DNA of 53,059 bases from a virus (lineage: Duplodnaviria; Caudoviricetes). The notes under the pieces were generated by a model that did no database searches, had not been told where the DNA came from, and worked only from the letters and a program-made list of their open reading frames with translations. The stretch lies in the IMG/VR virus record IMGVR_UViG_3300042987_002152, positions 1 to 53,059 of that record; one strand, given 5' to 3'. The translations under genes and the position numbers were made by a program. Positions 93 to 52,946 of this stretch are shown here, one piece after another. Within the stretch, counting starts at the first letter, position 1, and each line of letters starts with the position of its first letter.

Positions 93-148
93 GTGACAAG
101 CCGCTATCCATCCAGGGCCTAAAGGCGCCTGGCTTTCCGCGGCGGAAC
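93..148 (-). mobile_element. IS200/IS605 left-end-like mini-element, copy A
   Basis: TTAC|GTTCCGCCGCGGAAAGCCAGGCGCCTTTAGGCCCTGGATGGATAGCGGCTTGTCAC; same target/hairpin/GGATGGATAGCG layout as the other copies. Confidence 0.65.
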
Positions 149-336
149 GTAAATTATTGCTGCATCAGGCTCCTGGTCAAAAATTAAATTGACGGGTCGT
201 TTATAATTATCAAATTAAATTTGATAATTGCCTTCTAAACTTATAGATGCCCAATAAGAAAATTCTAAGGTATTAACCCATTGACGTTGATCAATATCAA
301 AAAAGACTACATTATTTCTGATTGGGTGAGAAAAGC

Positions 337-1185
337 TCATAGTACAGCACCTGTGGGTAGATTTACAGTATTTGATGCTTGATTTTCTGCACGTTGTTGT
401 AATTGATCTTCTACTTGACGTGTATGACTGGGACTGCTATCATTCATGATCAACAAATCATCACGTATGGATTGATTTTTCTTTTCAGTGCTGAGAATTT
501 TAAGGAAACTGGTGGCCACCACTTGTGTATAATAGCTGAAGGGGTTGCTGCTTTTGCTTTCATCAAATTGGAGGCCCACTTGACTCAATTGCATGAGAGC
601 CTGTGCACGCATCTCATCCAAATAACTGTAACCTCTCCAGTTGCCACGATGTCCATATCGTTCTACCAATTTCATCCACATGGCGCCCAGCTGGTTGGTT
701 ATTCTACCATGATCCAAGTTGAAATGTCCATTGATCAATCCTCCCTGCCAGTGACTTTTACCCACACAAATCCAGGTTTGATTTTGCCAAACATAATGTT
801 GAAAGGGTGGAAACTGACATCTGATGTGTCTGTCAGCCACAGTTTTTGCTCTAGCTTGCTTGATGGGGTTGGAATCCACAGGCACGTGTTCGAACGTCAT
901 CAATCTCACAACTATTTCCTCAAGTGGGAAATCATCCACTGTCAATGTGCTTTCAAAACTTTTATTTTGGGACTGTTTCTTTTGTTCTATTTGATGGTCC
1001 ATTAATTTTTTTTGTCTGGCTGCCTGCAGTGTGTCCATGGTCACAAGATCCAAACTAGTAGCAATAATGTCGTAATTTTTGTATTTGTCATCCACGAAAC
1101 TGCAAAAAGTCAATTTGCTTGCGTGTATGGCTGCCAATAAATCTTTGTTGGTGAGATATTTTATTTTGGGTACAAGTGTGTTCAT
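337..1185 (-). CDS. T4 gp55-like RNA polymerase sigma factor for late transcription
   Basis: YLTNKDLLAAI, NWRGYSYLDEM and FDESKSSNPFSYYTQ motifs typical of gp55; likely start MNTLVPK at 1185. Confidence 0.85.
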   Translation of the reverse strand: MNTLVPKIKYLTNKDLLAAIHASKLTFCSFVDDKYKNYDIIATSLDLVTMDTLQAARQKKLMDHQIEQKKQSQNKSFESTLTVDDFPLEEIVVRLMTFEHVPVDSNPIKQARAKTVADRHIRCQFPPFQHYVWQNQTWICVGKSHWQGGLINGHFNLDHGRITNQLGAMWMKLVERYGHRGNWRGYSYLDEMRAQALMQLSQVGLQFDESKSSNPFSYYTQVVATSFLKILSTEKKNQSIRDDLLIMNDSSPSHTRQVEDQLQQRAENQASNTVNLPTGAVL

Positions 1186-1271
1186 TAAATCTTTGCACAA
1201 GTAAAATAGTTTCAATGCATTGTGTTGACCAAACATTCGGTTTGTCAATTCTCCTGCAAAACTGGCTTTAT

Positions 1272-1466
1272 CATTTCGAGCGGAAGACCACTGGCTTGAA
1301 AGCCAGCGGATGGATAGCGAATGGTATCAATATTGATCTGGAAGTTGCGCTACAAATATAGGATCTATCCAACCCCACAACAGGAACAACACATGCGATC
1401 TGTGGGTGGGTCAATACCTGGTACACTAGGAAGATTGTTGTGGGCGTGAACATATCACGTACTCAC
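1272..1466 (+). mobile_element. internally deleted IS605/IS1341-type element, copy B
   Basis: TTAT (1268-1271), left-end hairpin CTGGCTT-GA-AAGCCAG, GGATGGATAGCG, then a tnpB 5' remnant; right end degenerate (TCAC at 1455-1458 or 1463-1466). Confidence 0.7.
1321..1449 (+). pseudogene. tnpB: tnpB N-terminal remnant (HTH_OrfB_IS605-like)
   Basis: 42-codon frame MVSILIWKLRYKYRIYPTPQQEQHM...; YKYRIYPTPxQ is the hallmark TnpB N-terminus. Confidence 0.75.
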
Positions 1467-1525
1467 CCTAGAAGGTTAAATACCTCGAATTAAGGTTATG
1501 AGAGCCAATATAATAAGGTTGAGAT

Positions 1526-3814
1526 ATGAAACTTTTTGAACTGTTTGCTACTGATATTCTCCTAGAAGCCAAAGCCAGGATTGAACACCCAGAAGATCTT
1601 ATATTCGATCAAGGATTATCTGGTGCCAAAACTGCTTTGCATATTTTGCATACCACAGCTGACCAACCTCAAAGCGTCAGCATCAAATTTGATGGAAGTG
1701 TGGCCTTGATAATGGGGTGGCGAGCAGATGAGTTTGTGCTCACAGACAAGGCAGGGTTTGGCGCCAAAGGTTATGATGGCATGACCACCAGTGGTGCCAG
1801 TATAGAAAACATGATCATGGCTCGCAAACAGAAAGACACCAGTCCACAGGCCATGGACAAGAGGAGTGCATATGCTAGGACTATTGCCAGCTTGTATCCC
1901 ATTTTGCGCGCAGCTGTGCCTCGATCCTTCAAGGGATATGCACAAGCTGACCTGTTGTGGGTGGGAGTACCCAAAATAGTTGATGGCATGTATGAGTTCA
2001 AGCCCAACAAGATAGTCTATCGTGTGGGTGTGAACACAGAACTGGGCAAACAAATAGCCAACAGCAAGGTGGGCATGGTTGTGCACAGTATATTTGCCAA
2101 CCAACAGGATGAAGAGCCAGACGCATTGCGTGACGTGGCCAGCTTGGGATGGAAAATTCCAGGAGATCTAGTTGTGGTACCACACGAAATAGAATTCAAA
2201 CAAAAATTGGTGCTAAACAAAACGGATAGTGACAAACTGCAAAAGATCATCCAGACAAAGGGCAAAAACGTTGACAAACTTTTTGACCCACTTAGCTTGA
2301 CAGATCGCAACATCAAGGCATTGCCCAATTTGATGAAAAGCTTTTTGGCCTACAAAGCAGGCAAGGGCAGCCAAGATTTCAGCAACGTTGCCCAAGAATT
2401 TGTGGATTGGCTGGCCAGTCCAGCCAGCAAAGCCAGCGCCAAAATGCAGGCCGCAGTGGGTGAATGGTTGAGCGCTAATCTTGCGGGATACAACGCCACC
2501 TGGCAAATAGTGCAGTTGTTGGTTGATTTGAAATTGGATCTCAAGAGTCAGATGGATCAACAAGTGGGCAACATAGTCGGTGCCCAGTTGGATCAGGCTC
2601 CTGGTCATGAAGGCTTTGTGAGTGTGACGCCTCAGGGTATTATCAAGTTGGTCAATCGTGCAGAATTCATGAAAAAGGACCAACCAGTCAGCGAAGCAGA
2701 ACAAGGCAAGCATGTGAGCTGGGCATTTGGCAGGATGAACCCCCCAACTCTAGGTCACCAACATTTGGTTGATACAGTGGCCAAAAATGCCAAGGGTGGT
2801 GATTATTGGATATTCCTCAGCCACAGTCAGGATCCCAAGAAAAATCCTCTGCCTCATGCAGACAAAAAACATTTTGCACAAATGATCATGCCCAAGCATG
2901 CTCAACATTTTGATGTACCAGAAGATATCCGAACCTTTCTACAAGCAGCTGATTGGCTTTACAAACAAGGCTATCGCAGCATGACCTTTGTGGCTGGCAG
3001 CGACAGACTACCAGAATTTGAAAAACATCTCAATACTTGGAACAGCCAAGCTATCCGTGACAAAGCACCTTTGGAAATCCATGGACAACTGCAAACAAGA
3101 CAACCTATTGAAATCAAATTTGCCAGTGCTGGTGAAAGAGATCCAGATGCAGAAGGATTGAGTGGGATTAGTGGCACCAAAGCTAGAGAGGCTGTGGCCC
3201 AAGATGATTTTGTTGGGTTTCAAGCCAGCACTGGACTCACAGGCAAGCTTGCGAAATCCATGTTTGATGCTGTAAAATCTCACATGCAGGCTGCCAAACC
3301 AGCCAAAACCAACAGAGTGAAAGAACAAATGATGGGAACCATCCCTGCACCTGAACAGGAAGATCACAGCAAGGGCACAATCGTCAAATTGAGATTGGCC
3401 AATGAGTGTGCCCAGCAATTATATGAATGGTGTCAACAGCACAATATCAATTGCATAGATCCACATGACTTTCACATGACATTGGTGTTCAGCCTCACTC
3501 CTGCACCTCAATTGAGTGATTTGCATGCAACCAGCACTCACATTCCTGCTAACATCAAAGGCTGGAAGATATTGGGCGAAAATACTCTAGTGTTGGATTT
3601 GGATTCACACATGGCTGATAGAATGCACCACAAACTGTTGGAATGCGGTGCTACTCACAGCTATCCTAGTTTTATACCTCACACAAGTGTCATGTATGGC
3701 TGGAATGAGCCCCGTGTGCCTCAACAAGTTCCAAATATGGAAATGATATTTGAGAGTGTGGAGGTCGAACCGTTAGACCCCAATTATGCAAAAACAACAC
3801 AGCCAGGCAATTGA
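1526..3814 (+). CDS. multidomain protein: ligase-like nucleotidyltransferase + HIGH/cytidylyltransferase-like domain + Acb1/gp57B-like 2H phosphodiesterase
   Basis: KFDG (motif I), EGFV and IKLV (motifs IV/V); FGRMNPPTLGH and ISGTKAREA; HMTL/HTSV 2H motifs with TLVLDLDS, GATHSYPSFIPH and EPLD as in T4 gp57B/Acb1. Confidence 0.8.
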   Translation: MKLFELFATDILLEAKARIEHPEDLIFDQGLSGAKTALHILHTTADQPQSVSIKFDGSVALIMGWRADEFVLTDKAGFGAKGYDGMTTSGASIENMIMARKQKDTSPQAMDKRSAYARTIASLYPILRAAVPRSFKGYAQADLLWVGVPKIVDGMYEFKPNKIVYRVGVNTELGKQIANSKVGMVVHSIFANQQDEEPDALRDVASLGWKIPGDLVVVPHEIEFKQKLVLNKTDSDKLQKIIQTKGKNVDKLFDPLSLTDRNIKALPNLMKSFLAYKAGKGSQDFSNVAQEFVDWLASPASKASAKMQAAVGEWLSANLAGYNATWQIVQLLVDLKLDLKSQMDQQVGNIVGAQLDQAPGHEGFVSVTPQGIIKLVNRAEFMKKDQPVSEAEQGKHVSWAFGRMNPPTLGHQHLVDTVAKNAKGGDYWIFLSHSQDPKKNPLPHADKKHFAQMIMPKHAQHFDVPEDIRTFLQAADWLYKQGYRSMTFVAGSDRLPEFEKHLNTWNSQAIRDKAPLEIHGQLQTRQPIEIKFASAGERDPDAEGLSGISGTKAREAVAQDDFVGFQASTGLTGKLAKSMFDAVKSHMQAAKPAKTNRVKEQMMGTIPAPEQEDHSKGTIVKLRLANECAQQLYEWCQQHNINCIDPHDFHMTLVFSLTPAPQLSDLHATSTHIPANIKGWKILGENTLVLDLDSHMADRMHHKLLECGATHSYPSFIPHTSVMYGWNEPRVPQQVPNMEMIFESVEVEPLDPNYAKTTQPGN

Positions 3815-3829
3815 TACCTGGCTGTAAAT

Positions 3830-4624
3830 TCAGCTTATACCAGTCAATCTGGTGATTCTTTCAGCCTCTTCTCGATTTTTGCGGATATCTCCAGGCTTTC
3901 TAGGACTGCCGTCAGGATTGTTCTCTAGAGGCAAATCATGTACAAGTTTCTTGAATGCAGCAACTAGTTTGGCATTCTTGTGAATTGCGTCCTGCAAAGT
4001 TTCCACACTCAACAACGCATTCTTGTTGTATTTGGCACCAAACATTTTTTTGGCAATCTGATCAGGATCTTTGCTGATCAAACTTTCATCATCTCTGCGG
4101 ATCAGTCCTTTTTGCCAACTGTATTTCATACCCAGGGCTTTGGCCACACTGCTCATCAGCAGGTTTCTGTCTGCACCAGTGTATTTGCTGTTGTCTCCAG
4201 CACTGAACATACCAAACTTCATCCATGTGGGATCATCATCAAACATCCAATCCACTTGAACAAATCCATTCGCAGCATCTCCCCGGATGGGTGTTAGGAA
4301 ATGAACACTAATACCACTTTTTTTAATGTATTGTTTGGGATCCTGGTTGTTGTTGTGTGCCCATTTTGTCAAAATGTCCACCAGCTGCTGCTTGCTGATC
4401 TTGGTGGCATCCACAGCGATATCCAAATCACCCGAGCTGGCTTTTTTGCCCACGCTGCCCAAGGTCATATCCAGGGTAGGCAGTCCCGTTATTTTGTGTA
4501 ACCAAACAAGAGTTGGATGGATGTCAGCCAGGTTTATTCTTTGCGTTAGAGGAGCACCATCAGGATTCTTGAATACTTGTCCTCCTTCCAGGAGATCAAT
4601 TGTGGGTAATTCTTGTAATTTCAT
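3830..4624 (-). CDS. Pol-beta superfamily nucleotidyltransferase, probably virion-packaged
   Basis: GSVGKKASSGDLDIAVD and VQVD acidic motifs; leader MKLQELPTIDLLE; TAAATA 7 nt upstream of the ATG at 4624. Confidence 0.7.
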   Translation of the reverse strand: MKLQELPTIDLLEGGQVFKNPDGAPLTQRINLADIHPTLVWLHKITGLPTLDMTLGSVGKKASSGDLDIAVDATKISKQQLVDILTKWAHNNNQDPKQYIKKSGISVHFLTPIRGDAANGFVQVDWMFDDDPTWMKFGMFSAGDNSKYTGADRNLLMSSVAKALGMKYSWQKGLIRRDDESLISKDPDQIAKKMFGAKYNKNALLSVETLQDAIHKNAKLVAAFKKLVHDLPLENNPDGSPRKPGDIRKNREEAERITRLTGIS

Positions 4625-4631
4625 GATAATA

Positions 4632-4667
4632 TATTTATGCAACGATTTAAGAGATCGTGTATAAATA
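4632..4667. promoter_or_regulatory. back-to-back divergent late promoters
   Basis: TAAATA on minus (4637-4632) and TATAAATA on plus (4660-4667) between divergent genes. Confidence 0.6.
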
Positions 4668-4680
4668 AAGCAACGGCTGC

Positions 4681-4716
4681 TTGCTATCCAGAGATGAAAA
4701 GTACCCGGCTCTCCGT
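4681..4716 (-). mobile_element. degenerate IS605 left-end-like copy G / hairpin
   Basis: Minus strand CCCGGCTACGGAGAGCCGGGTACTTTTCATCTCTGGATAGC resembles copy A; strong hairpin, but no TTAY target. Confidence 0.35.
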
Positions 4717-4756
4717 AGCCGGGTGCAATGCACTAGAATGGGAAAAATTGTAAGAT

Positions 4757-5179
4757 ATGACAAACTATATTTGGATTTTTAAAAATTTCACAGTCAATCC
4801 TAGCACTGATGGGCTAACCAATGTAGTGACTGCTATAGAATACATACTACAAGCTAGTGAGAACGACAAACAAGCATATAGAACCGGTGTTGTTTCATTG
4901 GATCCTGCCAATCCTAATGAATTCATACCTTTTGATCAAATAACCAGCGTGATGGCGCAACAGTGGTGTGAAGCCAAATTGCCTATGCCTATATTGTATG
5001 CAGAATTAGATCAAATATTGCAAGCCCAAAATTTGCCCTTGGTACCACCTCCATTTGTTCCAGTTCCTGTGCCACCACCTGTGCCACCACCTGTACCACC
5101 ACAGCCAGATTCATCTTCCATGCCAGATGAAACTACCATATCAGATCCCTTAACAGAGACCAACAGTCCACAAACATAA
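4757..5179 (+). CDS. tail-associated/fibre chaperone-like protein with Pro-rich tail
   Basis: DGLTNVV...FIPFDQIT...W pattern seen in small phage tail proteins; downstream of a late promoter. Confidence 0.5.
   Translation: MTNYIWIFKNFTVNPSTDGLTNVVTAIEYILQASENDKQAYRTGVVSLDPANPNEFIPFDQITSVMAQQWCEAKLPMPILYAELDQILQAQNLPLVPPPFVPVPVPPPVPPPVPPQPDSSSMPDETTISDPLTETNSPQT
5066..5101 (+). repeat. 12-bp tandem repeat x3 (PVPP)
   Basis: cctgtgccacca cctgtgccacca cctgtaccacca. Confidence 0.9.
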
Positions 5180-5250
5180 TCTCCTCATAGCCTCCTACTT
5201 GGCTGATTTCACCATCTTAAATACATGTTAGAGATGTACAAGGAACAACC

Positions 5251-6207
5251 ATGCCCAGGTTTGGTGGATTTAATTTAGGCAACATAGGAGGAGCATTGGT
5301 CCGCAATGCCGTGGGAACCATTGCCAGTCAAATACGACCCAGTTTGCCTTTTAGTGAGCAAGACGGATACGGTTTTACAAATGCTAGTGTAGAAAACCGC
5401 AAAGTCAGTTTGCGAGCCAAAAGAGGCGCTGCTAGCAGACTGTATGGCAGTGGTATTTGTGCACCTTTGAGCGCAAGTGATGGACTGGTATGGCCCTATC
5501 AACCACAAATAACCTACAACCATCAAGTTATGTATAGTGATCTATCTGTTGTGCATGCTAATCAGGATTTTCATGTATTCAGCAAGGTTCCAGCCGTAAA
5601 ACTGACAGTTAATGGATCTTGGAGTGTACAAAACCAACAAGAAGGGCAATATGCTATGGCAGCCCTACATTTTTTACGCACTATTACAAAAATGAATTTT
5701 GGTGACACAGACCCCAATGCAGGTACTCCTCCGCCCATATTATTGTTCAATGCATATGGGCCCTATGTGTTCAGTGATTTGCCAGTGGTTGTTAATAGTT
5801 TTAGCATGGATTTTCCGGAAGATGTTGACTATGTACAGGTACAAATTCAAGGAGTAAATTCATCCAACACCTCTGCACCCACTCAATTGAGTGATCTCAT
5901 CCAAGTAGAAAGACTTCCCCCATTGCCATCTGAATTACAACCAGACGCCACAGGTAGACTGATTCCTGTAGGGTCCCCAGATGCTTCTTATTTCCAAACT
6001 CCTTTGAGATCCGTTATTCCTGGTAGAAATGGTGCAGTTCCTGGTACCACAAACACTGCTGCTGCTCTCAACTATACTGTGTGGTTGCCCAGTTTATTCA
6101 AGTTAACATGCGAGCTTACAGTGCAACACACTCCCAAAGATTTGCGATCCAGATTTAATTTGGGTAGATTTAGAGATGGTGCCAGCGATCAAAAGGATTT
6201 TATCTAA
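5251..6207 (+). CDS. baseplate/tail-tube initiator-like protein
   Basis: GLVWPYQPQI, FLRTITKMNFG, GTPPPILLFNAYG and LPVVVNSF motifs; directly before the gp53-like gene; TAAATA at 5218-5223. Confidence 0.65.
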   Translation: MPRFGGFNLGNIGGALVRNAVGTIASQIRPSLPFSEQDGYGFTNASVENRKVSLRAKRGAASRLYGSGICAPLSASDGLVWPYQPQITYNHQVMYSDLSVVHANQDFHVFSKVPAVKLTVNGSWSVQNQQEGQYAMAALHFLRTITKMNFGDTDPNAGTPPPILLFNAYGPYVFSDLPVVVNSFSMDFPEDVDYVQVQIQGVNSSNTSAPTQLSDLIQVERLPPLPSELQPDATGRLIPVGSPDASYFQTPLRSVIPGRNGAVPGTTNTAAALNYTVWLPSLFKLTCELTVQHTPKDLRSRFNLGRFRDGASDQKDFI

Positions 6208-6506: not shown

Positions 6507-9500
6507 TGAGTGGTAGTCAAACTGCTTTTCAAGCCCGTCAAGCAGCCTCTAGTGCAGCTCAAGCCGAATTGCGTTACAAACAAGATCAAGCAATAGCTGC
6601 ACAAATATCTGATCCAGAATTAAGGGCTCAGGTTTTACAGGATGCACAAGCAAATTATTCGAGAGTTTTGAACACTAGCAATCAGCAGTTGACCTCGAGT
6701 AACAGCAGTGTGCCTGCTGTGACCAGTCAACCGGCCCAAATTGATTATGTGGATTTACAACGAGCCAGACGTGGAGACATAGTGTTGGAACCTGGTGAAG
6801 TTCCCACAATACAACCACCTTCCAGTTCTCCACCCAGTCTGCCTAGGACTTTGGATGATACGATACAAGATACTTACAGAGCTGCTCGAGAACCGCAAGC
6901 CTTTGACATAACAGAAAGAGTCAATCAGCAGTTGGGCGAACCACAAACACCGCCACCCATTACACAACAATCTTTTCCTGTGTCTGGACAAAGTCGCCCA
7001 CCATCTGGCAACAACAGCAGCCTTGACAATAGTACTGATCGTGCTCCCCGGGCAGATACTATTGATGGCAGTGCTAGCCAAGCTGCTCCTCCCATGGAAC
7101 AAGTGCCAGACAGCAGTGCCAGTAGAATCATAACCTCATTGCCATTAACTCTAGATCCGCGCCCTACCGGAACTGCTAGCGCAAACAATAGTCCCCCGCC
7201 TATTAGGCAAAACCCAGTTGCTCCTTTGTTCAATTTTGAACCCAATCAATTTAACACATATGATCGTGTTACCTACAGTTTCAAGTTGTTTATGGTCAAT
7301 GATTTGGATGCCAAAGATCCAGATATAGCATCCAAAATACTCAATAATCAAATAAGAACTATTGTTATTGCACAAAGTGGTGTTACTGTGGGATTTAATA
7401 TAACTGAAGTGTCCATAACAGACAGCTTGAGCGCAAATTTTCGTAGTCGCAGCAATCTCACCACTGATATTAATATCAAACTCACTGAACCTTATGCTAT
7501 GACCTTGCCCGACCGATTGTATGCAGGCAGCAAAGTGTTGGGTATACGCAATTGGCGATTGGCACCCATGTTTTTGCAGTTGGAATTCAAATATATCAAA
7601 GAGGACGGTACTATCTACGTTCCGCAATCCAGTCAACAGTTGATCAAGCTTTATAGCTTGATGATTGTGGATTTTGACAGTCAATTGAAAGAAACTGGTG
7701 CAGAATATGACCTCAAGTGCAGTTCTCAGAACAACTTGGGCTTTAGAGATTTTTTTCAAATATTGCCCAACAGCCAAACAATCAAACTGTCAACAGCCAA
7801 CACTGTGGAAGAATTCTTTAGGGAATTGGGCACTACAATCACTGAACTGAACAGAAAAGCCAGAAAGAATGCCAGCAGTAAAAGTGTACCCCCCAGTTTG
7901 GTAGAATACAACTTTACAGTAAGAGATTCCCTGTTGGCTCAACAAACAATTGACTACAGCCCACAAAAAAGCCAACGCAAAACCAGTTTCCAGGGAGGGC
8001 AAGGTGGCGAGGTAACAGTTGCCCGAGGGGTAGGCATAAGTGCATTGGTGGATGACATCCTCAGCAGCTTGACAGATCCAAAATTTTTTGTAGCCAATCA
8101 ACAAGCAGGAACTTACAAAATACCCATCATTGAATGTATTACAGAAATAATTGGCTGGGACAACATACTCAATGAATATGTGCGTAGATTCAATTATGTG
8201 ATTGGTATGAAAGAGAGTGCTCGACCTGTACCTTTCAAAGAAGTGGCTGAGCAATTTCAAGGCAAACAGGCGCAACAAATGCAAAGATTGCAAACCCTGA
8301 GTCAAAACATGAAAAAATCCTATGAATATTTCTATACAGGAAAAAATACAGAAATAATCTCTCTGGATGTAAAATTTAATCAACTGCATGTGATTGTGCA
8401 ACCGTTGATGGAATTTCTACCCAATGTTCAGTTTGGTGGGGATACAAGCAAAGTAGATCCTAGAATACAAGCATTGAAAGACAAACAACAAGCAGAACAG
8501 AAGATCAAAGAAACTGCAAATTTGGACCCCTCACAGGTAGGAAGTGAATATCTTAAACAAGTGGAACAAGATATTGTTAGAAGTGAACAAATATTAGATC
8601 GTATCAACAATGAAAGTATAATACCTTTTGATTTAACTAGCGGATTGGCAGGATTTGTGACTGAATCATTGAATCCAGAACAAATAGTTGCTCTAGTACA
8701 ACAACGGCAACAGTTGTTGGATATACGTACCAAGATCAACGAGCAAAAAAACAATAATCAATATGCTGAAGATATTCCTCGTCAGTTACAAGCCCTTGAA
8801 TTGAGTTTCGCACCTGACCCACGTGACATGCAAAATACTCAAGTGCGTAGTGTGGCTGGTACTAGCCAAGCCGAAGATTCCAGTCAAAGTACGAGACCTA
8901 TTGTGAGCAGCATACTCACACAAATTTATGATAGGTCAGGCAGTAATATGCTGGAAATTGACATGGAAATCAGAGGAGATCCCTATTGGTTGGGTGTTAC
9001 AGATGTGGAACGTGCTAGAAACTTGATAAACATTATCAAAAACAATCAAGGAACAAATGCTACTACTGCTTCTCCCAACACAGGAAACTCATCCACCAGC
9101 AGTTCTAGTTCAACCAGCAGCACAAATTTTGTGCAAGTGTTTGATGCTGACAGCACTATATTACTGAGATTTAGAGCAGGAGCACAACCTGATAGTAATA
9201 CAGGATTTCAAAAGCTAGATTTGGAAAGTGATTTCTTTTATGGCATTTACACGGTAATCCAAGTAGAACATGATTTCAGGGATGGCAAATTCACACAAAA
9301 GCTGAAGGGTGTGAGAGATACATTGATTGATTTGAGTACATTAAGAACCGCTGGGGTAGAAAACACCAATCCCACACAACCACAAACGGCGGGTAGACCT
9401 TCCACACTTCCAGCTCCAAGTGCCAACAATATTATTACGGCAACAAACACAACCACAGTCAGAGCCAGAACAGTGGGCAACTCTGGAATTGTGGCAGGAC

Positions 9501-14174: not shown

Positions 14175-14192
14175 GCAGATATTTAAGTGAGA

Positions 14193-19519: not shown

Positions 19520-19564
19520 ATAACACTTGATCTTATCTGATTATTCAAAGTAAATAATGGTATA

Positions 19565-42466: not shown

Positions 42467-42525
42467 TTAATATTGCCTTTGTGAGAATACTATAGATTAA
42501 ACAATGACAAATTTTTTGTCAATTG

Positions 42526-42903: not shown

Positions 42904-43000
42904 TGTTTCCTGGCTGATGTTTGTGAATATTTAATATTAAACGTCAACAACAATCACAAAGAAATTCTTTGTGATTGTCTAGAAGAATATCAAACAAAAT

Positions 43001-43684: not shown

Positions 43685-43876
43685 TTATACTCCTTGTATT
43701 TCTGATAATTGATGTTGTTCTGCATATTCTACAAATTTTTCTAGATTTTGATACAACTGGCCCACACTGGCCAGTTCACCGCCTCGAAATGATCCGCGTT
43801 GTGTGCACAAATCAATCAACACTAAAACATTTTTGATATCTTGTATAGTAAGTGTTGTTGTATTTTCCTGGTTCAT
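43685..43876 (-). CDS. small hypothetical protein
   Basis: LTIQDIK...IDLCTQRGSFRGGELASVG; AGGAG RBS. Confidence 0.7.
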   Translation of the reverse strand: MNQENTTTLTIQDIKNVLVLIDLCTQRGSFRGGELASVGQLYQNLEKFVEYAEQHQLSEIQGV

Positions 43877-43953
43877 ACCAGAGTCTCCTTGAATGTTGTT
43901 AGGCTCTAATTATAATTAGATTTTCCAATTTTAAAGCAAAAAACATTTGATAT

Positions 43954-44505
43954 CTATAATCCATGTGAAAGGATTTCAATTAATTTGGGTGGCCATCCAA
44001 TATATGGAATCCAACTTTCATGAGGAATTCTCACTGGTTGATTTTTAACTTTGGTTACTAATTCGCCATAGGTGGGTTTATATGGCTCCTTCAAGGGCCG
44101 AATATGTGTTTTGTTACCTTTTTGTGTATTGCATGGTTGACAACTCATGACAATATTCAAATAATTGGTTTTTCCTCCCTTGCTTTTGGGTAACACATGT
44201 TCCATGGTGAGTTTTTTGAACTCAAACCTTTGAGCACAATATTGACATGTGTATTCATCTCTCAAACACAATGTATATTTGCTGAATCTCACTCCCCTGC
44301 TTGTTTTCACATATTTTTTGTTGACCACAATGCTGGGAACTTGCAAGCTCACACTAGGACTGTGAACAAACCAGTCCTTATACATATCTAGGCATTGCAC
44401 TTGCCCAAGATACACTAATTTGATTGCATCCCTCCAGCTTAGTGTGCTCAAAGGCAGCACACTCATGGGAGAATAATCGGCATTGAGGTACAGCACATCA
44501 CACAT
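43954..44505 (-). CDS. HNH endonuclease
   Basis: RDEYTCQYC, TMEHVLPKSKGG and CQPCNTQKG. Confidence 0.92.
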   Translation of the reverse strand: MCDVLYLNADYSPMSVLPLSTLSWRDAIKLVYLGQVQCLDMYKDWFVHSPSVSLQVPSIVVNKKYVKTSRGVRFSKYTLCLRDEYTCQYCAQRFEFKKLTMEHVLPKSKGGKTNYLNIVMSCQPCNTQKGNKTHIRPLKEPYKPTYGELVTKVKNQPVRIPHESWIPYIGWPPKLIEILSHGL

Positions 44506-44508
44506 GAT

Positions 44509-45720: not shown

Positions 45721-45739
45721 TCATGCTGTCTTCCTATGA

Positions 45740-45943
45740 CTACCAACCTTGTAGCAGATCCCATACACTGTGACACACATATGACAACATGCCCAATTGA
45801 GTGACAAAACTGATGCCAAAAAAGGCACTACTGCTCCAAATACATCCACTCCAGGACAGGACCCAATCGGCCACCATAGCACTAATCAAAAACATAGCAA
45901 AAACAGTTACACAAATTGTAGCATATTTGAGCATGCTTTTCAT
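45740..45943 (-). CDS. small membrane protein
   Basis: Two hydrophobic segments; TAAATA at 45977-45972. Confidence 0.6.
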   Translation of the reverse strand: MKSMLKYATICVTVFAMFLISAMVADWVLSWSGCIWSSSAFFGISFVTQLGMLSYVCHSVWDLLQGW

Positions 45944-45978
45944 TAACTATCCTTTTATCCTGTGTGTGGTTTATTTAT

Positions 45979-46084
45979 CTCCCGTTGCGGAAAACCAGGT
46001 GCCTTTGCGCACTGGATGGATAGCGGCAATTAGTTTTTCGCTGCGCAAGCCTGTTGTGGATAGAGCCCAACAGATACTTTAACT
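45979..46084 (+). mobile_element. IS605 left-end-derived remnant, copy D
   Basis: TTAT|CTCCCGTTGCGGAAAACCAGGTGC...GCACTGGATGGATAGCGGCAATTA; no right end visible before copy E. Confidence 0.6.
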
Positions 46085-46190
46085 GTGAACTACTATTGGT
46101 CTAAACACCAACAGCCTCCTGCTTGATCGTAGTGGCTGACATCAGACCCCAATGAGTGAGAATATCTGTGACCACATCCACAGGCGCAGG
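46065..46190 (-). ncRNA. putative TnpB omega-RNA (reRNA) scaffold plus flanking guide
   Basis: GCCTGTGGA (46185-46177), CGATCAAGCAGG (46129-46118), right-end hairpin and TTCAC; the guide would be the flank 46084-46065. Confidence 0.5.
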
Positions 46191-46323
46191 GGGCAGTTTC
46201 TGCTGTGGAGTTTGATAGGTCCTATATTTGTATTAAATAATATGGCAACTAGATTATATCAATATTTATACCACTCGCTATCCATCCACTGGCTTTCAAG
46301 CCAGTGGTCTTCCGCTCGAAATA
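46085..46323 (-). mobile_element. non-autonomous IS605/IS1341 element with both ends, copy E
   Basis: TTAT target, left-end hairpin, TATAAATA (46270-46263), tnpB remnant YKYRTYQTPQQ (46232-46200), right end CAGGAGG-CTGTTGGT-GTTTAG-ACCAATAG-TAGTTCAC. Confidence 0.75.
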
Positions 46324-46334
46324 ATAAATATGCT

Positions 46335-46721
46335 ATGCACTGGTTGATTGCCTTTTTTCTGCTGATTGCTTGGAGTAGACCTGTTCAATTGGAACACACT
46401 GAAACTCCTAGTTATCATTCACTATCTGCCTTGGCTACGTGTCTTAGTGTCATAGAGGTACAAATATCATTCACAGCCCATCGCATAGAACTTGCTCCAC
46501 ACATTATTGTTTGGGCAAACACCTTGGACCTTTATAATAATATGATCAAAGAGATCTATAGTGAAAGTGCACAACATGTGATTGTAGAAGAATATCAATC
46601 TATGAAAAAAGATTTGATAATAGCTCTCATGCATTATGACCAGGATCAGGTGCTGGAACTTGTGCAAAATTTTGTTTTGATTAGAGAACAATGCATATAC
46701 CTGGTCAGCTACTCCTCTTGA
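46335..46721 (+). CDS. hypothetical protein with N-terminal hydrophobic signal
   Basis: Start MHWLIAFFLLIAW 4 nt after TAAATA; the upstream part of the track ORF is element E. Confidence 0.6.
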   Translation: MHWLIAFFLLIAWSRPVQLEHTETPSYHSLSALATCLSVIEVQISFTAHRIELAPHIIVWANTLDLYNNMIKEIYSESAQHVIVEEYQSMKKDLIIALMHYDQDQVLELVQNFVLIREQCIYLVSYSS

Positions 46722-46860
46722 ACAACCACATGCACTAGATGCCCAACAAAGCAGATAATTGGCAACTTGTGCATGGGAGGATAAACATGATCAAGAACAG
46801 CCATCTGTGAGATTAGGCAGGACTCCTCTGTGAGAAATATGTAGGCACATAACTACTGGG

Positions 46861-47949
46861 TTAGCTCCCAAAACCCATGCGAAATTTTTGGACAGGTAGT
46901 TCTTGAGGATTCTGAAACAGTTGTGCCAAGCTCCAAGAATTTTGCGCCCGCCAATCACGGTCTGGCAAACCTGCTGCTAGTGCTGCCTGTTCAGCTTCTG
47001 CACTGGTGAGTTCTCGAAACTCAACGCTGGCAAAACACCGACCAGGACGCAGTAGAGCAGCATCAATCTTGCTTACCTGAGTGATGTTGCTTGTGAAAAT
47101 CATTTTTTTGTTGATGATTTTGATCAAGCCATCGCTCACATTCAAAAACTTGCTCATCATTTCGTTGTCACCATCTTCCCTGGGAGCCAAAAACACATCT
47201 GCATCCTCCACAATCAAGGCATTATGTTCCTCATCAGTGAGATAGTTGATGAAGAACTCATCATCCTTGAGGATGCGATCATCGTAAGTAACCATTGCAC
47301 TGATGTTATGACTCACCAGCATGTGCCTGAGGAAGCTGGTTTTGCCAGTACCTGGGGGACCATACAACACCAACACACTGGCACTGGATGAATAAAAGTC
47401 ATTGACAAACTGATCCACTCCTTGTTTGAACCATGGATAAAATTCATTGTGCAACTTCTGGCCCAGACCTGTCACGTGCATACTTGCACAATCATTACCA
47501 CGGCCGGTTTTGTAATACCAGCTGATTTTGACCAGTTTCTTACCGTGCAGGCGTTCTTGTAGATTTTCTCTTAGGCGAGTTACTTGCTCTTCTGCACCGT
47601 AAATTTCAAGTACAAAAGTAACAATATTATTGCGGCTGTAGCGATATCCGTTGTCATAACACATCACCAACAGGTTGTCTTGTGCATCAGTCACATAGAA
47701 CTCACGCCTATGAAAAAAATTAGCCTTGATATTAGTGTAGAACTGCTTAAACGTTTCTTTGACTGCATGGAACATTTGCAGTTCAGTTTCTTTGCAGTCA
47801 ATCTCAAACCGTGCCACAATAACTTCCGGAACCTTGCATTTGTTCCAAAATTCATTGATCACGCTACAACTGAGAGCATCACTGTGCCCTTCAGTGTAGA
47901 AAAAGCTTTCCAGCATGGGAGGACGATACATTCTATTACCCTTTAACAT
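46861..47949 (-). CDS. AAA+ ATPase
   Basis: GPPGTGKT, IVEDAD and DAALLRPGR. Confidence 0.9.
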   Translation of the reverse strand: MLKGNRMYRPPMLESFFYTEGHSDALSCSVINEFWNKCKVPEVIVARFEIDCKETELQMFHAVKETFKQFYTNIKANFFHRREFYVTDAQDNLLVMCYDNGYRYSRNNIVTFVLEIYGAEEQVTRLRENLQERLHGKKLVKISWYYKTGRGNDCASMHVTGLGQKLHNEFYPWFKQGVDQFVNDFYSSSASVLVLYGPPGTGKTSFLRHMLVSHNISAMVTYDDRILKDDEFFINYLTDEEHNALIVEDADVFLAPREDGDNEMMSKFLNVSDGLIKIINKKMIFTSNITQVSKIDAALLRPGRCFASVEFRELTSAEAEQAALAAGLPDRDWRAQNSWSLAQLFQNPQELPVQKFRMGFGS

Positions 47950-47994
47950 TATTTTATTCAGTTTATTGAAGAAATTCCATCCGTCAACATTTGT

Positions 47995-48339
47995 TTAGGG
48001 TTCATGGTTCTCCTGATCATATTCCCAAGCTGTGAGACTGACCACAGTCATGTAATTAGTCCATGCTTCTCTTATGCCAGGAAATCTTTTTTGGAGTTCA
48101 TCATGTTTGTAAGCTGCGTGCAGCTGATGCAAGATTGTTTGGAAGTCAGTTTCACTTATTGTGATGTCATACAACTGCTCTGTTTTCACCATTGGTATTG
48201 TGATGTCATACAACTGCTCTGTTTTCACCATTGGTGGTAAGGTAGATTCGTGCAAGCTTACCAGTTGTTGATAGCCTTTTACACTTGCGTTGAACTCCTG
48301 TGTAAACCAATCCAACTCTCGAGAATAAATTTGTGCCAT
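47995..48339 (-). CDS. hypothetical protein with 13-aa duplication
   Basis: 114-aa ORF in a tightly packed minus-strand run. Confidence 0.65.
   Translation of the reverse strand: MAQIYSRELDWFTQEFNASVKGYQQLVSLHESTLPPMVKTEQLYDITIPMVKTEQLYDITISETDFQTILHQLHAAYKHDELQKRFPGIREAWTNYMTVVSLTAWEYDQENHEP
48157..48235 (+). repeat. exact 39-bp tandem duplication
   Basis: tattgtgatgtcatacaactgctctgttttcaccattgg x2 (PMVKTEQLYDITI x2). Confidence 0.95.
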
Positions 48340-48342
48340 ATG

Positions 48343-48612
48343 TTAGCTCCATGTCAAAAGGAAATTCACTGCGTGTGAGTAGTTTCTAAACCAAAATTCT
48401 TGATAAACATTTGTGCAAATCACACCTGTGCTCCAATTGTGAATAGGATCAGGTTCACCAGCAATTTTGTGACAATATTCAATCAAATGTGGATCATGCA
48501 CTGTGTTGGTAGTTGGCAACCTCACGATATGATATGTGATCCCAGCACAGTCAAAGTCATAAAAACATTCGCTCCTCAAAAAAGTATCCTTGCGGGTCAT
48601 ATGTGTTGACAC
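48343..48612 (-). CDS. small hypothetical protein (F-x-F...F-x-L-T-W family)
   Basis: Ends FWFRNYSHAVNFLLTWS. Confidence 0.65.
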   Translation of the reverse strand: MSTHMTRKDTFLRSECFYDFDCAGITYHIVRLPTTNTVHDPHLIEYCHKIAGEPDPIHNWSTGVICTNVYQEFWFRNYSHAVNFLLTWS

Positions 48613-48630
48613 TTGATCAATCTGTGGGGA

Positions 48631-49038
48631 TCAAACAGACCTCATGTGGACACCATTGTAGAACTGATAGCCAAAAACCAAATTAAATTGAACTTGAGTC
48701 AGTTGATCCCAAGGCCATCTAATACCCAATTTGTTCATCCATTCATCCACATCTTGTGTAATATCAACATCCCATATATACCAACGGGGTTTGCCGTTTG
48801 CTGGTATGATTGCTGGACCATCCATTCTATGCCTTTGCCCTTGACAATACCATTGTGTCAGTTGCTCAGGCCCATCATATAAAATCACCACATGTGATTT
48901 GTGCAATGGATAATCTTGATACCCTTGATCAGATTTTGCTTGAGATAATCTGTTTGGGTCCTGCACATCCTGCTTGACCCATAATTCTATTCCTGTATTT
49001 GGATCAATAATTTGTCTGTAGCAATCACTCATTGGCAT
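48631..49038 (-). CDS. hypothetical protein with HRxDGPA repeat unit
   Basis: WYCQGQRHRMDGPAII...WY. Confidence 0.65.
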   Translation of the reverse strand: MPMSDCYRQIIDPNTGIELWVKQDVQDPNRLSQAKSDQGYQDYPLHKSHVVILYDGPEQLTQWYCQGQRHRMDGPAIIPANGKPRWYIWDVDITQDVDEWMNKLGIRWPWDQLTQVQFNLVFGYQFYNGVHMRSV

Positions 49039-49067
49039 GCTAGTTTAGCAGATAGTCAGACTAATGT

Positions 49068-49322
49068 CTATATGCTCTCAAGGTTATGGGAAAAGGTTCC
49101 ACCCCAAGTCAAATGGAACATGATAGCATCTTTGTGAAATTGAAACATAAACCGCCTGCTATAACATCTGACAAGGCCCACATAGATTGGACCTGCATAA
49201 TATGTGGCTCCTCGGGTGTTAGGCCAACACTGATAACACCAAGTATACGCCTGTTCCAAACGGAGGCTGTCTGGTGAATGCAATACCACAATATATTCAA
49301 GCTTAGCCACGTTGCTGTTCAC
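49068..49322 (-). CDS. small hypothetical protein (F-x-F...F-x-L-T-W family)
   Basis: FMFQFHKDAIMFHLTWG. Confidence 0.6.
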   Translation of the reverse strand: MNSNVAKLEYIVVLHSPDSLRLEQAYTWCYQCWPNTRGATYYAGPIYVGLVRCYSRRFMFQFHKDAIMFHLTWGGTFSHNLESI

Positions 49323-49545
49323 ACCCCTGGCATATCCATGCTATGTCCACATTGGGGGCACTTCCAAACGTCTTCAAGTGTGACAATGTGACAGTTTCGT
49401 TATTGATCAAATGTCCTCCTGGATCACTCAGAGCATGTTTAAGATAGTCTGGAATAGTTGGACCAATGGCAATGCCCTGGTTCATAGCCACATGGCATCG
49501 GTAGCAAGTGGGGATCAATTTATGGTTCACCTTATCAAATCTCAT
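49303..49545 (-). CDS. small Cys-containing hypothetical protein
   Basis: CYRC and CQGC pairs; overlaps both neighbours. Confidence 0.5.
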   Translation of the reverse strand: MRFDKVNHKLIPTCYRCHVAMNQGIAIGPTIPDYLKHALSDPGGHLINNETVTLSHLKTFGSAPNVDIAWICQGCEQQRG

Positions 49546-49825
49546 GTGAAGTCTGAGTGATTAGACGTGCTGCAACCTGCTCTGCCATATGAACATACCA
49601 TGGCCAGCCATCAATATTCTCAAAATACCAGTCACTAGTAGAGGTAGGCAACGGCACAGCACAGGGCTCTAATCCTCGATATTCATTATAGCCCCACACG
49701 ATAGGGCCGTATATTGCATCTGTGAGGATCTTGCAACATACCATGGTGGGAAAGCAAGCCACGGCATAGACACACCACAACGGTTTGCCCACGATCCCAG
49801 GATCATTTGGATCAACCAACATCAC
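49535..49825 (-). CDS. small hypothetical protein
   Basis: Coupled to the ligase stop; AGGAG RBS. Confidence 0.55.
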   Translation of the reverse strand: MMLVDPNDPGIVGKPLWCVYAVACFPTMVCCKILTDAIYGPIVWGYNEYRGLEPCAVPLPTSTSDWYFENIDGWPWYVHMAEQVAARLITQTSHEI

Positions 49826-51024
49826 TCATTCTCCTGTGATTCATCCTTGTATTTCAGGCCACCCCATAGATATCGAACGGAATCAACTCTGGTTTGGGTG
49901 CCCAGATTCTTGCGGATCAGCTCTAGCACTGCCGTTGGGAAATCAAATTCACTATTATCCCAGGCCTGAAAAATCATTCCCCTGAGGCTGGAATCCATGG
50001 TGGGAGCCCATTCAATAGCAAACTTCTTGCGATCAGTACCAAACAAGCTTTTGGCATCCATATAAACCAGCTGCCACTTGCCAATGGTGTCCTGCACACC
50101 CTGCCAAAAATCCCGTTCATAGGTTTCCACACGAGTGAGATCTTCTCTGGGCAAATAGCTCTTGATGTCGTCCAGCTTTTGGTCCAAGATCATCTCAATC
50201 AAGCCCTTTTCATGGATCAGATTATCCTTGGCTCGATGGATCCTCACATAAGAATCAGCCTTGAGCTTGACCATGTGTCCATCATGCCAGCGGATAATAC
50301 AGCCTTCCTGATCTTCCAGTGCCCGTGTGTCATTCACCAGTTGCTGCATGCTTTCCACAGTTCCTGCATATGCTCGCACCAAATCCAAGCCATACTCACC
50401 AGCCAGCTCTTGCATCTGCTGATAGGTGAGATATTCACCAGTCAACACATGGCGAACTGCAATCAGCACCAGCCTGTCCTCAGGATAGTCTATCACAATC
50501 CGTTGCTGACGACTACACCATTCAAATATGGGCGTATATCCAGCGCCAATCGCACCTAGGATGAACGTATTGATGTTGGGTTTGTTGGCCACGTATGTCT
50601 CAGCTTGTTGTGCCACATCTGTGATTCCCATTCGGGTGCCCAACCGATAGGTGCCACCTGTGGTGGGAATGGGACGAATCATACTTCCATCCATTTTATC
50701 TAATATGATATGGGGTTTGCTGAGATCAATGTTCTCCAACAAAGTCTCCCGTCGTTCTCCTGCATTCCAAAATTTATGCAGGGGGCGAGACACCAATTCT
50801 CCCTGTTTGTTAAAGCACAATCCTCTGCATTCTCGGCGAATTGCATGATGCATTGCCAGCTCAGGCCCATCCTGGCTGAGTACTTCCGGAAACATATCAG
50901 GACCCATCTGCACATAGTTCACCACAGTGCCCCAGTCACGCTGGGCAACAATAAATCCCTCCACTCCCTGGATGGCAGCCAGCACTTGATCAATGTGGGT
51001 GATTTCAGGAAACTTATAGTGCAT
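49822..51024 (-). CDS. T4 Rnl1-like RNA ligase
   Basis: RECRGLCF, RPLHKFWN, KMDGS, EGCII and MVKLKADSY; start MHYKF at 51024. Confidence 0.9.
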   Translation of the reverse strand: MHYKFPEITHIDQVLAAIQGVEGFIVAQRDWGTVVNYVQMGPDMFPEVLSQDGPELAMHHAIRRECRGLCFNKQGELVSRPLHKFWNAGERRETLLENIDLSKPHIILDKMDGSMIRPIPTTGGTYRLGTRMGITDVAQQAETYVANKPNINTFILGAIGAGYTPIFEWCSRQQRIVIDYPEDRLVLIAVRHVLTGEYLTYQQMQELAGEYGLDLVRAYAGTVESMQQLVNDTRALEDQEGCIIRWHDGHMVKLKADSYVRIHRAKDNLIHEKGLIEMILDQKLDDIKSYLPREDLTRVETYERDFWQGVQDTIGKWQLVYMDAKSLFGTDRKKFAIEWAPTMDSSLRGMIFQAWDNSEFDFPTAVLELIRKNLGTQTRVDSVRYLWGGLKYKDESQENE

Positions 51025-51047
51025 GATCAATCCCTTATGATTGCTAT

Positions 51048-51075
51048 AATATAGCACACTCTTGGATCATGTCAA
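51048..51075 (-). promoter_or_regulatory. sigma70-type early promoter
   Basis: TTGACA-N16-TATATT with TGC before the -10, same geometry as 16786 and 17602. Confidence 0.65.
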
Positions 51076-51299
51076 TCAGTCGTTGTCATCAAATCCATTG
51101 GCAGGTCTCTCTGGGACAGGTACCAATCCCATTGATCCTTGCCTATAGATATGAGGATTTTTTCTTGTCTACAAGGATGTTCATGTACCTGGTCTTTCAG
51201 CACATCCAGAAGATCTTAAAATCACTGCTGGATCGTGGCATCTGACATGACCTATATGGGCATGTCCACAAGCCGATGACCTGTGGTTCCACACATGAA

Positions 51300-52841
51300 T
51301 TATTTTCTTGCCTTCTTGCCTCTACCCAATGCCTGCACATCTGGCACCCTGGGATCCCGCTTGTCACGTGCGTTTTTGCTAACGATCCTACCCACCTGTT
51401 TGTCCCGTATGGCCTTCTCAGCCTGATGTGGGGTCTTGAAACTGTCACCAGTCAGCTTGTCTACAATTTGGCCATCTTTGGTCATTTCAAATCTTTCATC
51501 ACCAGCCAATTCCTTGAGCAGTTTGCCCATTTCAACCAAATTTCTGAATATGGGTTTGCCTGAAGGGTTTTCCACCTTGAGTCGGGCCTTGACAAGCACA
51601 TTATCGGGGTTGTCTTTTTCATGTACAATAATGGTGGGCGTGGCCAGTGCAGTGGCTGATGTCCGGATGCTGGCTGCCAGATCCAGTTGATCCAGTTTCT
51701 CTTCCAAATTGTCAAAGTTGATTTGATCATAGCCTGCAATGGTGGGTGCATTCTTGAGTGCAATTAAAACTACATCCTTGTCTGAACCTCTTGCAAAATG
51801 TTGTATGCCTCTGGCCAAATCCGTCACCCAGTGAGCTTCTGTGGTGTTGTTGGATGTCTTCAATTTACGATTTAGTTCATCTTTGACCCACAAATATGCT
51901 TTGCTGGCAGCTTGTACAGGTTGTCCACTGTCCCATTCCTTTTGGATGCTGGCAGGCAGTGTGACGCCAAACAGGGCATGCATGAATTCTTTGACAGTTG
52001 CAAAGCTTGTGCCATATCTCTGGCCAAACTGTGCAACATCTGCTGCCTTGAGGCTGATATTCAGTTTCACAGGCTTGCCGTCAATTTTCACTCTCACATC
52101 CACTTTGGTGCCTGTTTGTTCACTCAAACCGTCACTTGTGATTTCCACATGATTGGCTTGGGGATCATTCAGAATGTGGTCAATCTGTTCTTGCATCTGT
52201 TTGTTCTTGTTTGCAAACAGTTGGGCGCTTTTTAATGCACCAATATAGCCTGACCTATCTTCACTCATTAGTGCATCCATGGTGATCTTGTCCAGTTTGA
52301 TCTCCAGTTTGATTTTGTTGCCCTGCTCAGTGGTGTTATATGTGGCTCTTGCAATAGGAGCCTTCTTGCCCTGTTGAATATATTCCAGTTTGCCGCCTTG
52401 CCTGTTGTTCTTGATGTTGTTGAGAATCTTAACAATATCTTGTTCTGTGACTAATTTGTTGGTCACAAAGCGAGCTGTAATAGCCACCCCCAATAAACCT
52501 TCTGCCAAATTACCCACATTAAATCCCTTGACTCCTGCGCCTCCTCCGAATTCCTTGGTTTTTTTGAGGTTACCAATTGCCATGCTTTGCCCATCCAGGG
52601 TTCGCACTATGATCTTGGAAAATTTCTCCCCAGCCAACAGTCTGTCAAATGTATCTTTCAGTTGATCATGACTGTGAGGATCTATCAAAACCTGTTCGCC
52701 TGTGCGTTCCACTGTGAAGGGGAGTTGTTCCTTGACCATGTTCAGAAATTTCTGTATTCGCCAAGGACGCCGTATGAGGGCACTAGCATCCAAACCAGAT
52801 TCTGTGATGGATGGATGGGGTCTAAGTTGGTAGATTCGCAT
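51300..52841 (-). CDS. probable virion-packaged protein with PD-(D/E)xK-like nuclease motif
   Basis: Leader MRIYQLRPHPSITE; GNLAEG...KVDV...ISLK; TAAATA at 52866-52861. Confidence 0.6.
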   Translation of the reverse strand: MRIYQLRPHPSITESGLDASALIRRPWRIQKFLNMVKEQLPFTVERTGEQVLIDPHSHDQLKDTFDRLLAGEKFSKIIVRTLDGQSMAIGNLKKTKEFGGGAGVKGFNVGNLAEGLLGVAITARFVTNKLVTEQDIVKILNNIKNNRQGGKLEYIQQGKKAPIARATYNTTEQGNKIKLEIKLDKITMDALMSEDRSGYIGALKSAQLFANKNKQMQEQIDHILNDPQANHVEITSDGLSEQTGTKVDVRVKIDGKPVKLNISLKAADVAQFGQRYGTSFATVKEFMHALFGVTLPASIQKEWDSGQPVQAASKAYLWVKDELNRKLKTSNNTTEAHWVTDLARGIQHFARGSDKDVVLIALKNAPTIAGYDQINFDNLEEKLDQLDLAASIRTSATALATPTIIVHEKDNPDNVLVKARLKVENPSGKPIFRNLVEMGKLLKELAGDERFEMTKDGQIVDKLTGDSFKTPHQAEKAIRDKQVGRIVSKNARDKRDPRVPDVQALGRGKKARK

Positions 52842-52867
52842 GTGATCATCTCTTTTGGCATATTTAT

Positions 52868-52946
52868 TATTTCGAGAGGAAGTCCACTGGCTTTCAAGCC
52901 AGTGAATGGATAGCAAGTGGTATAAATATTGATATAATCTAGTTGC
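52868..52946 (+). mobile_element. IS605 left-end copy F with internal late promoter
   Basis: 52858-52946 matches the reverse complement of 46245-46333 at 83/89 nt; TATAAATA at 52921-52928. Confidence 0.7.

Follow-up and report, generated by a model that had tools for sequence, protein, structure and literature searches.

Why does a short hairpin of fixed layout recur, on both strands, between the genes of a phage? The question is raised by a viral contig of 53,059 nt (IMGVR_UViG_3300042987_002152; the entire record of that genome, hereafter the window). The original prediction, made from the letters of the window, took these hairpins for left ends of IS200/IS605 elements, either as a phage-resident family of miniature inverted-repeat transposable elements (MITEs) or palindrome-associated transposable elements (PATEs) mobilised in trans by a Y1 transposase, or as hairpins domesticated for regulation. 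Our analysis speaks for transposition: with high confidence, the six copies, which we call A to F, are the left ends of non-autonomous, PATE-like IS200/IS605 derivatives residing in intergenic DNA of a freshwater jumbo myophage.

The motif is far more frequent in the window than chance allows. Its 11-nt box, GRATGGATAGC, is found six times with at most one mismatch, where 0.70 occurrences are expected, and none of 100 shuffled sequences reached six. The boxes lie at 103–113 (−), 1308–1318 (+), 19474–19484 (−), 46014–46024 (+), 46277–46287 (−) and 52904–52914 (+), which are the places where the six clear copies had been seen, and alignment returns the predicted geometry in all six: TTAY, 9 nt, (C/A)(G/A)GAA, the hairpin and the box. 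The alignment also separates the two subfamilies that had been described, A/C/D and B/E/F, whose stem sequences differ while the structure is common to both. A covariance model built from 19 copies (the six of the window and 13 from other viral contigs) and run with filters off gives exactly six matches in the window, at 58–72 bits; the next-best match, at 11 bits, is the hairpin of E on the opposite strand. All six copies are intergenic, as had been stated. A seventh, degenerate copy had been proposed at 4681–4716 (−), where the covariance model has no match at E ≤ 10; the family count is hence six. That site is built differently: a T4-late-type octamer at 4660–4667 (+) precedes a hairpin with a 10-bp stem at 4701–4726, upstream of a structural operon starting at 4757, and the stretch 4660–4726, placed outside the family by the covariance model, holds only a 7–8-nt piece of the box.

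The nature of the motif emerges from the genes that adjoin it elsewhere. A first scan of viral contigs with a loose pattern returned 118 loci, mostly by chance, together with about a dozen true look-alikes in which the hairpin sequences differ and the pairing is kept. In these contigs the motif stands 2–250 nt upstream of Y1_Tnp plus OrfB_IS605 (L049), of OrfB_IS605 (L055 and L057) or of Y1_Tnp (L062). A scan of prokaryotes, with one genome per species, yielded at least 120 loci, including Halomonas, Clostridium, Deinococcus, Nostoc, Acidithiobacillus, Acidianus and Thermocladium among others. Among the matches listed, 60 instances have a stable hairpin, and the first downstream open reading frames (ORFs) tested (n = 31) belong to OrfB_IS605 in 12 cases, to Y1_Tnp in three, and to other families or none in 16. 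Because the genes adjoining the motif in the four viral contigs, and many of those in prokaryotes, are those of Y1 transposases and TnpB, we conclude that it marks the left end of IS200/IS605 elements that form a widespread clade.

A second line of evidence comes from the pairing between target and guide. In IS608 of Helicobacter pylori, according to excerpts of the published work, the left cleavage site TTAC is recognised by base pairing and not read by the protein, the guide AAAG adjoins the foot of the hairpin, 3' of which two bases are required (PMC3201880). Copy A had been noted to combine TTAC with AAAG and copy D TTAT with AAAA, and this link extends to a general covariation of target and guide. 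In the 19-copy alignment the last base of TTAY and the last base of the guide form C-G in seven copies, U-A in five, U-G in four and G-U in two, and are unpaired in one; the two G-U rows have a longer linker and are mis-registered. Among the matches listed for prokaryotes, 23 of 59 distinct instances have TTA in the standard register, and 21 of these are Watson-Crick paired (C-G 13, T-A 5, A-T 3) and two mismatched; in the other 36 the linker is of a different length or the match is due to chance. The guides of the window copies read AAAG, AAAA or AAGA, with 'AT' directly after the hairpin foot. Across the 19 copies the hairpin stem covaries strongly, paired cells amount to 77% as against 61% in shuffles, and the covariation score was reached by none of 500 shuffles. 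Beyond the hairpin, the linker between TTAY and guide pairs with bases just past the box, so that an outer helix encloses both guide and hairpin (100–104 with 139–143 in A, and matching positions in the other copies). Three of its eight pairs show at least three standard pair types each in the 19-copy alignment, and the helix covaries over viral and prokaryote copies, reaching 8–9 bp in L055.

The third line of evidence is provided by the boundaries. When the copies are aligned together with their flanks, homology starts directly after TTAY, and in complete elements it stops directly after a right-end hairpin followed by TTCAC, with unrelated flanks beyond. C and E close in this manner, and so do A-type elements of ~330 nt in another viral contig (G001; 61.7 kb, ~9% complete), whose flanks diverge at once. 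Left end and right end do not form an inverted-repeat pair, and the flanks lack a direct repeat. C (197 nt) and E (239 nt) are thus short, non-coding and equipped with both IS200/IS605-type ends intact, as PATEs are. The right end is likewise intact in the relatives from G001 and from a further phage fragment, G013 (see below), while it is degenerate in B and D, lies off the window edge in A and is interrupted in F. We had also considered a right end of the form GGAAT-hairpin-...TCAA, as in L057 and L200, and rejected it: its tail motif has 25 occurrences in the window, with 19.5 expected, and no hairpin carries both flanks. Right ends in this phage lineage are of another type, ending in TTCAC. 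In the excerpts considered here, TTCAC is also given as the transposon-end motif of ISGst elements from Geobacillus, whose PATE-like derivatives frequently bear omegaRNAs (PMC10055086).

If the copies are transposon ends, a transposase should be found with related ones. The window has no Y1_Tnp or OrfB_IS605 match and contains remnants of tnpB only; the statement that it lacks a transposase is accordingly right for Y1 TnpA and for the RuvC core of TnpB, and has to be amended for short tnpB remnants in B, in E and at the right edge. G001 shares almost no protein-coding likeness with the window and has several non-coding repeat families in common with it, at 80–100% identity. It contains ten strong left-end matches, with inverted pairs among its copies too, and several C-terminal TnpB remnants of 110–160 aa, each followed by a right-end module (for example 15811–16014 (−), 4011–4196 (−) and 8783–8899 (+)); RuvC core, Y1 gene and intact tnpB are all missing from this contig. 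One of the G001 remnants has a histidine where an aspartate is usual before the NAA motif. A stricter scan for A-type left ends added three further large-phage fragments. In two of them (G011, G012) the left ends are followed by full-length tnpB genes, and the third, G013, holds a full element, in which TTAC and an A-type left end are followed by an extended −10-like promoter, then by tnpA (143 aa, with an HUH-type motif) and tnpB (398 aa), and finally by a right end that closes with TTCAC. Judged by its sequence, this element appears to be an autonomous tnpA- and tnpB-bearing relative with matching ends. The search for a Y1 TnpA that had been suggested is thus negative in the window and positive outside it, with an intact tnpA in G013 and Y1_Tnp in L049, L062 and prokaryotes. 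The G013 element (2880–5794) appears to lie within a long ORF with helicase-like motifs or right in front of it; the ORF resumes just past the right end, and the insertion may split a phage gene.

The autonomous relative also illuminates the interior of the window elements. The tnpB of G013 matches positions 1356–1395 in B with its first codons (92.5% identity) and positions 46117–46203 in E with its 3' end (89.7% identity), a likeness which indicates that B and E are internal-deletion derivatives of a tnpB-bearing element. Since Y1 and TnpB are absent from the window and present in relatives with the same ends, we class the window copies as non-autonomous derivatives and not as insertion sequences proper. 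The adjoining tnpA and tnpB genes, the covariation and the TTCAC right ends of C and E bear out that the motifs are IS200/IS605 left ends, and the bounded, gene-less C and E, with an autonomous relative sharing their ends, bear out the proposed MITE/PATE family.

Looking at the elements one by one, we find complete, decayed, nested and interrupted forms; their coordinates were read by hand, and single-base errors are possible. Element A (1–152, −; 72.2 bits with the covariance model) has its target-adjacent motif (TAM), TTAC, at 149–152, its left-end core at 100–148, the guide at 133–136 and the hairpin at 112–132. Its body reaches base 1 and runs off the left edge; positions 58–155 match three ~330-nt full-length elements in G001, and the last 20 bases at the edge match the interior of these. 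Element B (1268–1458, +; 59.2 bits) has TTAT at 1268–1271, a left end from 1272, the guide at 1284–1287 and the hairpin at 1288–1309. Within its 187 nt (1272–1458) lie a tnpB 5' remnant at ~1352–1395 and a degenerate right end at ~1442–1458 that has lost the 5' hairpin arm; B and E are 94% identical over 71 nt and share a second block. Element C (19323–19523, −; 58.2 bits) is complete (19323–19519), with TTAT at 19520–19523, a left end from 19519, the guide at 19504–19507 and the hairpin at 19483–19503. Its right end is a perfect palindrome in self-BLAST (19323–19349), ending in TTCAC (19323–19327).

Elements D and E stand tail to tail, 1 nt apart. D (45975–46084, +; 61.1 bits) is a mini-element of ~105 nt, with TTAT at 45975–45978, a left end from 45979, the guide at 45991–45994, the hairpin at 45995–46015 and a right-end-type hairpin at 46051–46073 followed by a variant tail; positions 46029–46077 are 94% identical to a G001 segment, and the hairpin stem is of the type of the G001 right ends. 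E (46085–46327, −; 66.4 bits) is complete (46085–46323), with TTAT at 46324–46327, a left end from 46323, the guide at 46308–46311 and the hairpin at 46286–46307. In its interior we find a promoter-like stretch at ~46245–46270, a tnpB 5' remnant at 46196–46232 and a tnpB-3'/omegaRNA-like module at 46085–46203, which ends in a hairpin and TTCAC (46085–46089) and has six copies with sharp common boundaries in G001. The abutting tails would fit an insertion of E at TTAT between D and the neighbouring gene. Element F (52864–52946, +; 59.5 bits) has TTAT at 52864–52867, a left end from 52868, the guide at 52880–52883 and the hairpin at 52884–52904, and its box carries one mismatch. It is 93% identical to E over 89 nt; from 52868 on it matches E for 79 nt, and the likeness ends at 52946, where an element on the opposite strand begins. 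This IS200/IS605-type element (52950–53059, −) abuts F and runs off the right edge, with a right end at ~52950–52984 and a C-terminal tnpB remnant, including the stop, at 52985–53059. As a whole it is 94.5% identical to G001 3935–4043, which overlaps a match to the TnpB zinc ribbon (TNB) with E 4.6e-21; the piece of tnpB tail in the window is too short for more than a TNB match of E 0.07, and its translation was read by likeness. Judging from these features, C and E look competent for transposition, and B, D and F look decayed or interrupted.

We thus propose a mechanism along the lines of IS608. Cleavage would occur 3' of TTAY, which would be recognised by pairing with the 4-nt guide that follows the linker at the foot of the subterminal hairpin, next to a conserved 3' flank. 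A Y1 (HUH) transposase supplied in trans would act on the top strand in single-stranded form and cut it at both boundaries, and the single-strand circle so released would be pasted 3' of another TTAY ('peel and paste'). The enzyme could be encoded elsewhere in the phage genome, by a co-infecting relative or by the host.

Whether the elements have been mobile in the recent past can be judged in part from strains. Contigs of four sequencing runs from four studies were compared with positions 40000–53059, i.e. with sites D, E and F. At the same sites, three of the four runs contain D and the end of E that faces D, two cover the left end of E, and all four contain F. The contigs break inside the repeats, over which the summed contig depth is ~10 times that of the unique flanks. 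One contig joint, 46128/46270, was considered as an excision and rejected; it has 10 other letters at the joint and comes from another copy. Finding D, E and F at the same sites in four metagenomes, with none skipped, indicates that these insertions are older than the split between the sampled strains, whose sequences are up to ~1.7% apart. On a longer time scale, phage contigs related via the late sigma factor (28–45% identity, including one complete 480-kb genome) have no motif match, which points to a lineage-specific invader and not to an old regulatory feature; at this distance, these contigs are too remote to serve as true empty alleles.

Several observations weigh against our interpretation. 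Contigs of the four runs contain no empty allele at D, E or F, although rare variants drop out of contigs; present-day mobility of the window copies is for this reason unproven. The original prediction had named, as grounds for giving it up, loci that are always occupied combined with copies that nowhere flank intact tnpA or tnpB; the first was found in the four metagenomes, yet copies elsewhere do flank intact genes. The mobilising enzyme of this phage was not seen, as neither the window nor G001 contains tnpA or an intact tnpB. The right-end hairpin of B is broken, D has a tail other than TTCAC, and F is interrupted. Upstream of TTAT, outside the proposed boundary, five further bases are identical between E and F, which could reflect copying by recombination or chance in AT-rich DNA. 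Finally, the outer helix around guide and hairpin is unexplained; to our knowledge, such a helix has not been described in the IS608 work.

Among the alternatives, the one that fares best sees domesticated regulatory cassettes in the copies, either on top of their being transposon ends or instead of it; left end and internal promoter would then serve neighbouring phage genes as a portable promoter or leader. Promoter/stem-loop cassettes have been reported in T4-type phages, and the setting of the copies is suggestive: five of six lie in divergent promoter regions near gene starts, all four T4-late-type octamers of the window are near copies, such an octamer and an extended −10-like sequence directly follow the box in E and F, and four metagenomes show the elements fixed in place. 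However, a promoter-like stretch also follows the left end of the autonomous G013 element, ahead of tnpA, which argues that the stretch seen in E and F belongs to the transposon itself. Moreover, B has lost it, and the phages related by their late sigma factor do without the motif. Altogether we regard such cassettes as unlikely; domestication, the second option of the original prediction, is not needed to account for the copies, and co-option of the promoter is possible as judged from these sequence features.

A structured, riboswitch-like cis-regulatory RNA, with two covarying helices around a conserved internal loop, is a far less credible reading. Both helices do covary, G-U pairs are tolerated on the forward strand only, and in several viral contigs the motif stands between co-directional genes, on the transcribed strand. 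Against this, single-stranded DNA hairpins tolerate G-T as well, the tetranucleotide upstream and the guide covary in the manner of single-strand DNA transposition, matching right ends exist, and the downstream genes are transposases and form no metabolic regulon. Rfam, too, gives no match at gathering score over the window, and around copies A, B, D and E its matches at E ≤ 10 are at chance level only, which speaks against riboswitch and ribozyme alike. Dispersed, conserved intergenic hairpins of phages are easily mistaken for regulatory RNAs, and the guide/target covariation test separates transposon ends from these.

Equally hard to maintain is the idea that the copies are solo hairpins like repetitive extragenic palindromic (REP) elements, which are dispersed intergenic hairpins tied to Y1/HUH enzymes called REP-associated tyrosine transposases (RAYTs), here handled by a domesticated enzyme of that type: the copies are indeed dispersed, intergenic, often arranged as inverted pairs (A/B and D/E, and in G001) and free of a transposase nearby, but every traceable copy runs into a transposon body, intact bodies end in a right end with TTCAC, B and E contain tnpB remnants, the inverted pairs are two separate elements and no doublet, and the window has no Y1 gene, so that unlike REP elements the copies are ends of bounded elements.

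How do the window elements, taken as PATE-like derivatives, compare with known systems? With IS608, as far as excerpts of its description go, they share the target tetranucleotide, the guide at the foot of a subterminal hairpin, the 'AT' 3' of the foot and the top-strand logic (PMC3201880). They differ from it in that most copies combine TTAT with AAAA or AAGA, in the 11-nt box 3' of the hairpin, in the additional enclosing helix, in the right boundary (TTCAC instead of TCAA) and in encoding no proteins. The ISGst elements of Geobacillus stearothermophilus (Meers et al. 2023) are described, in the excerpts at hand, as having covarying adjacent motifs and DNA guides and many non-autonomous copies without tnpA, which are thought to be mobilised in trans (PMC10055086). 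The window elements resemble them in the TTCAC end, the covarying motif and guide and the PATE-like non-autonomous copies, a likeness of published features; unlike ISGst, which resides in a bacterial chromosome, they are found in a fragment of a virulent-type jumbo phage. The PATEs of Haloquadratum walsbyi, reportedly short, non-coding, palindrome-bearing IS200/IS605-type derivatives in archaeal chromosomes (Dyall-Smith et al. 2011 are said to have described them), are of similar build, again with a phage instead of an archaeal chromosome as the place of residence.

The kind of element is therefore already known; what stands out is its density in a jumbo phage and the presence of complete, decayed, nested and interrupted copies in one window. 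Virulent phages are generally regarded as poor in insertion sequences, with packaging limits and gene density selecting against them. Here we count six elements in 53 kb, and ten strong copies in 62 kb of G001, so that jumbo phages may serve as reservoirs and vehicles of TnpA/TnpB transposons and guide-RNA modules. Tens of copies per phage genome would follow if the genome size estimated below and an even density hold. A bolder reading would have this freshwater jumbo-phage lineage sustain a working IS200/IS605 population, with autonomous tnpA and tnpB and dozens of omegaRNA-bearing PATEs per genome, in which the PATEs act as portable promoters and so rewire the regions between genes, while TnpB, guided by PATE RNA, cuts co-infecting relatives at their 'empty' alleles and works as a phage-to-phage gene drive. 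We consider this improbable as a whole; were it true, the outer helix would count as a so far undescribed trait by which left ends are recognised in this clade.

The genome that hosts the elements is that of an uncultivated, virulent-type freshwater jumbo myophage. CheckV puts the completeness of the window at ~12%, which corresponds to a full genome of roughly 440 kb, and the gene content by PHROGs is that of a large T4-like myovirus of the Rak2/GAP32/Atu_ph07 kind, with a gp55-like late sigma factor, baseplate wedge proteins, RNA ligases, an HNH endonuclease and a virion protein of 4166 aa. In tblastn, the baseplate wedge protein finds its best match, at 38–40% identity, in jumbo phages of this kind; a search of the phage collection with positions 1–25000 returned no close nucleotide relative. 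Near-identical DNA occurs in sequencing runs from nine studies of freshwater, sediment and aquaculture metagenomes, and no RNA datasets are listed among these runs. The late sigma factor gene (337–1248, −) lies between elements A and B, which are in divergent orientation, and encodes 303 aa, whereas T4 gp55, at ~185 aa, is much shorter. Hairpin promoters of the N4 type, a thought prompted by the 4166-aa ORF, were ruled out, as PHROGs identifies its product as a giant structural protein of the virion and not as a virion RNA polymerase.

Three further features of the window lie outside the elements. Positions 40872–41307, within the ORF 39755–41545, have a summed contig depth of 15–80 times the flanks in all four runs, with many GGC/GGT-rich loose ends; a low-complexity, glycine-rich part of a tail-fibre gene probably draws unrelated contigs here. 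A palindrome with a 12-bp stem at 3798–3826 stands between the convergent genes 1526–3814 (+) and 3830–4642 (−), is followed by a T-run on the minus strand and is likely a two-way terminator. At 48157–48235 there is a perfect 40-nt tandem direct repeat, which differs in the contigs of two runs: one lacks 45 nt, and the other has 31 other letters in place of 67 nt. Its length appears to vary at strain level.

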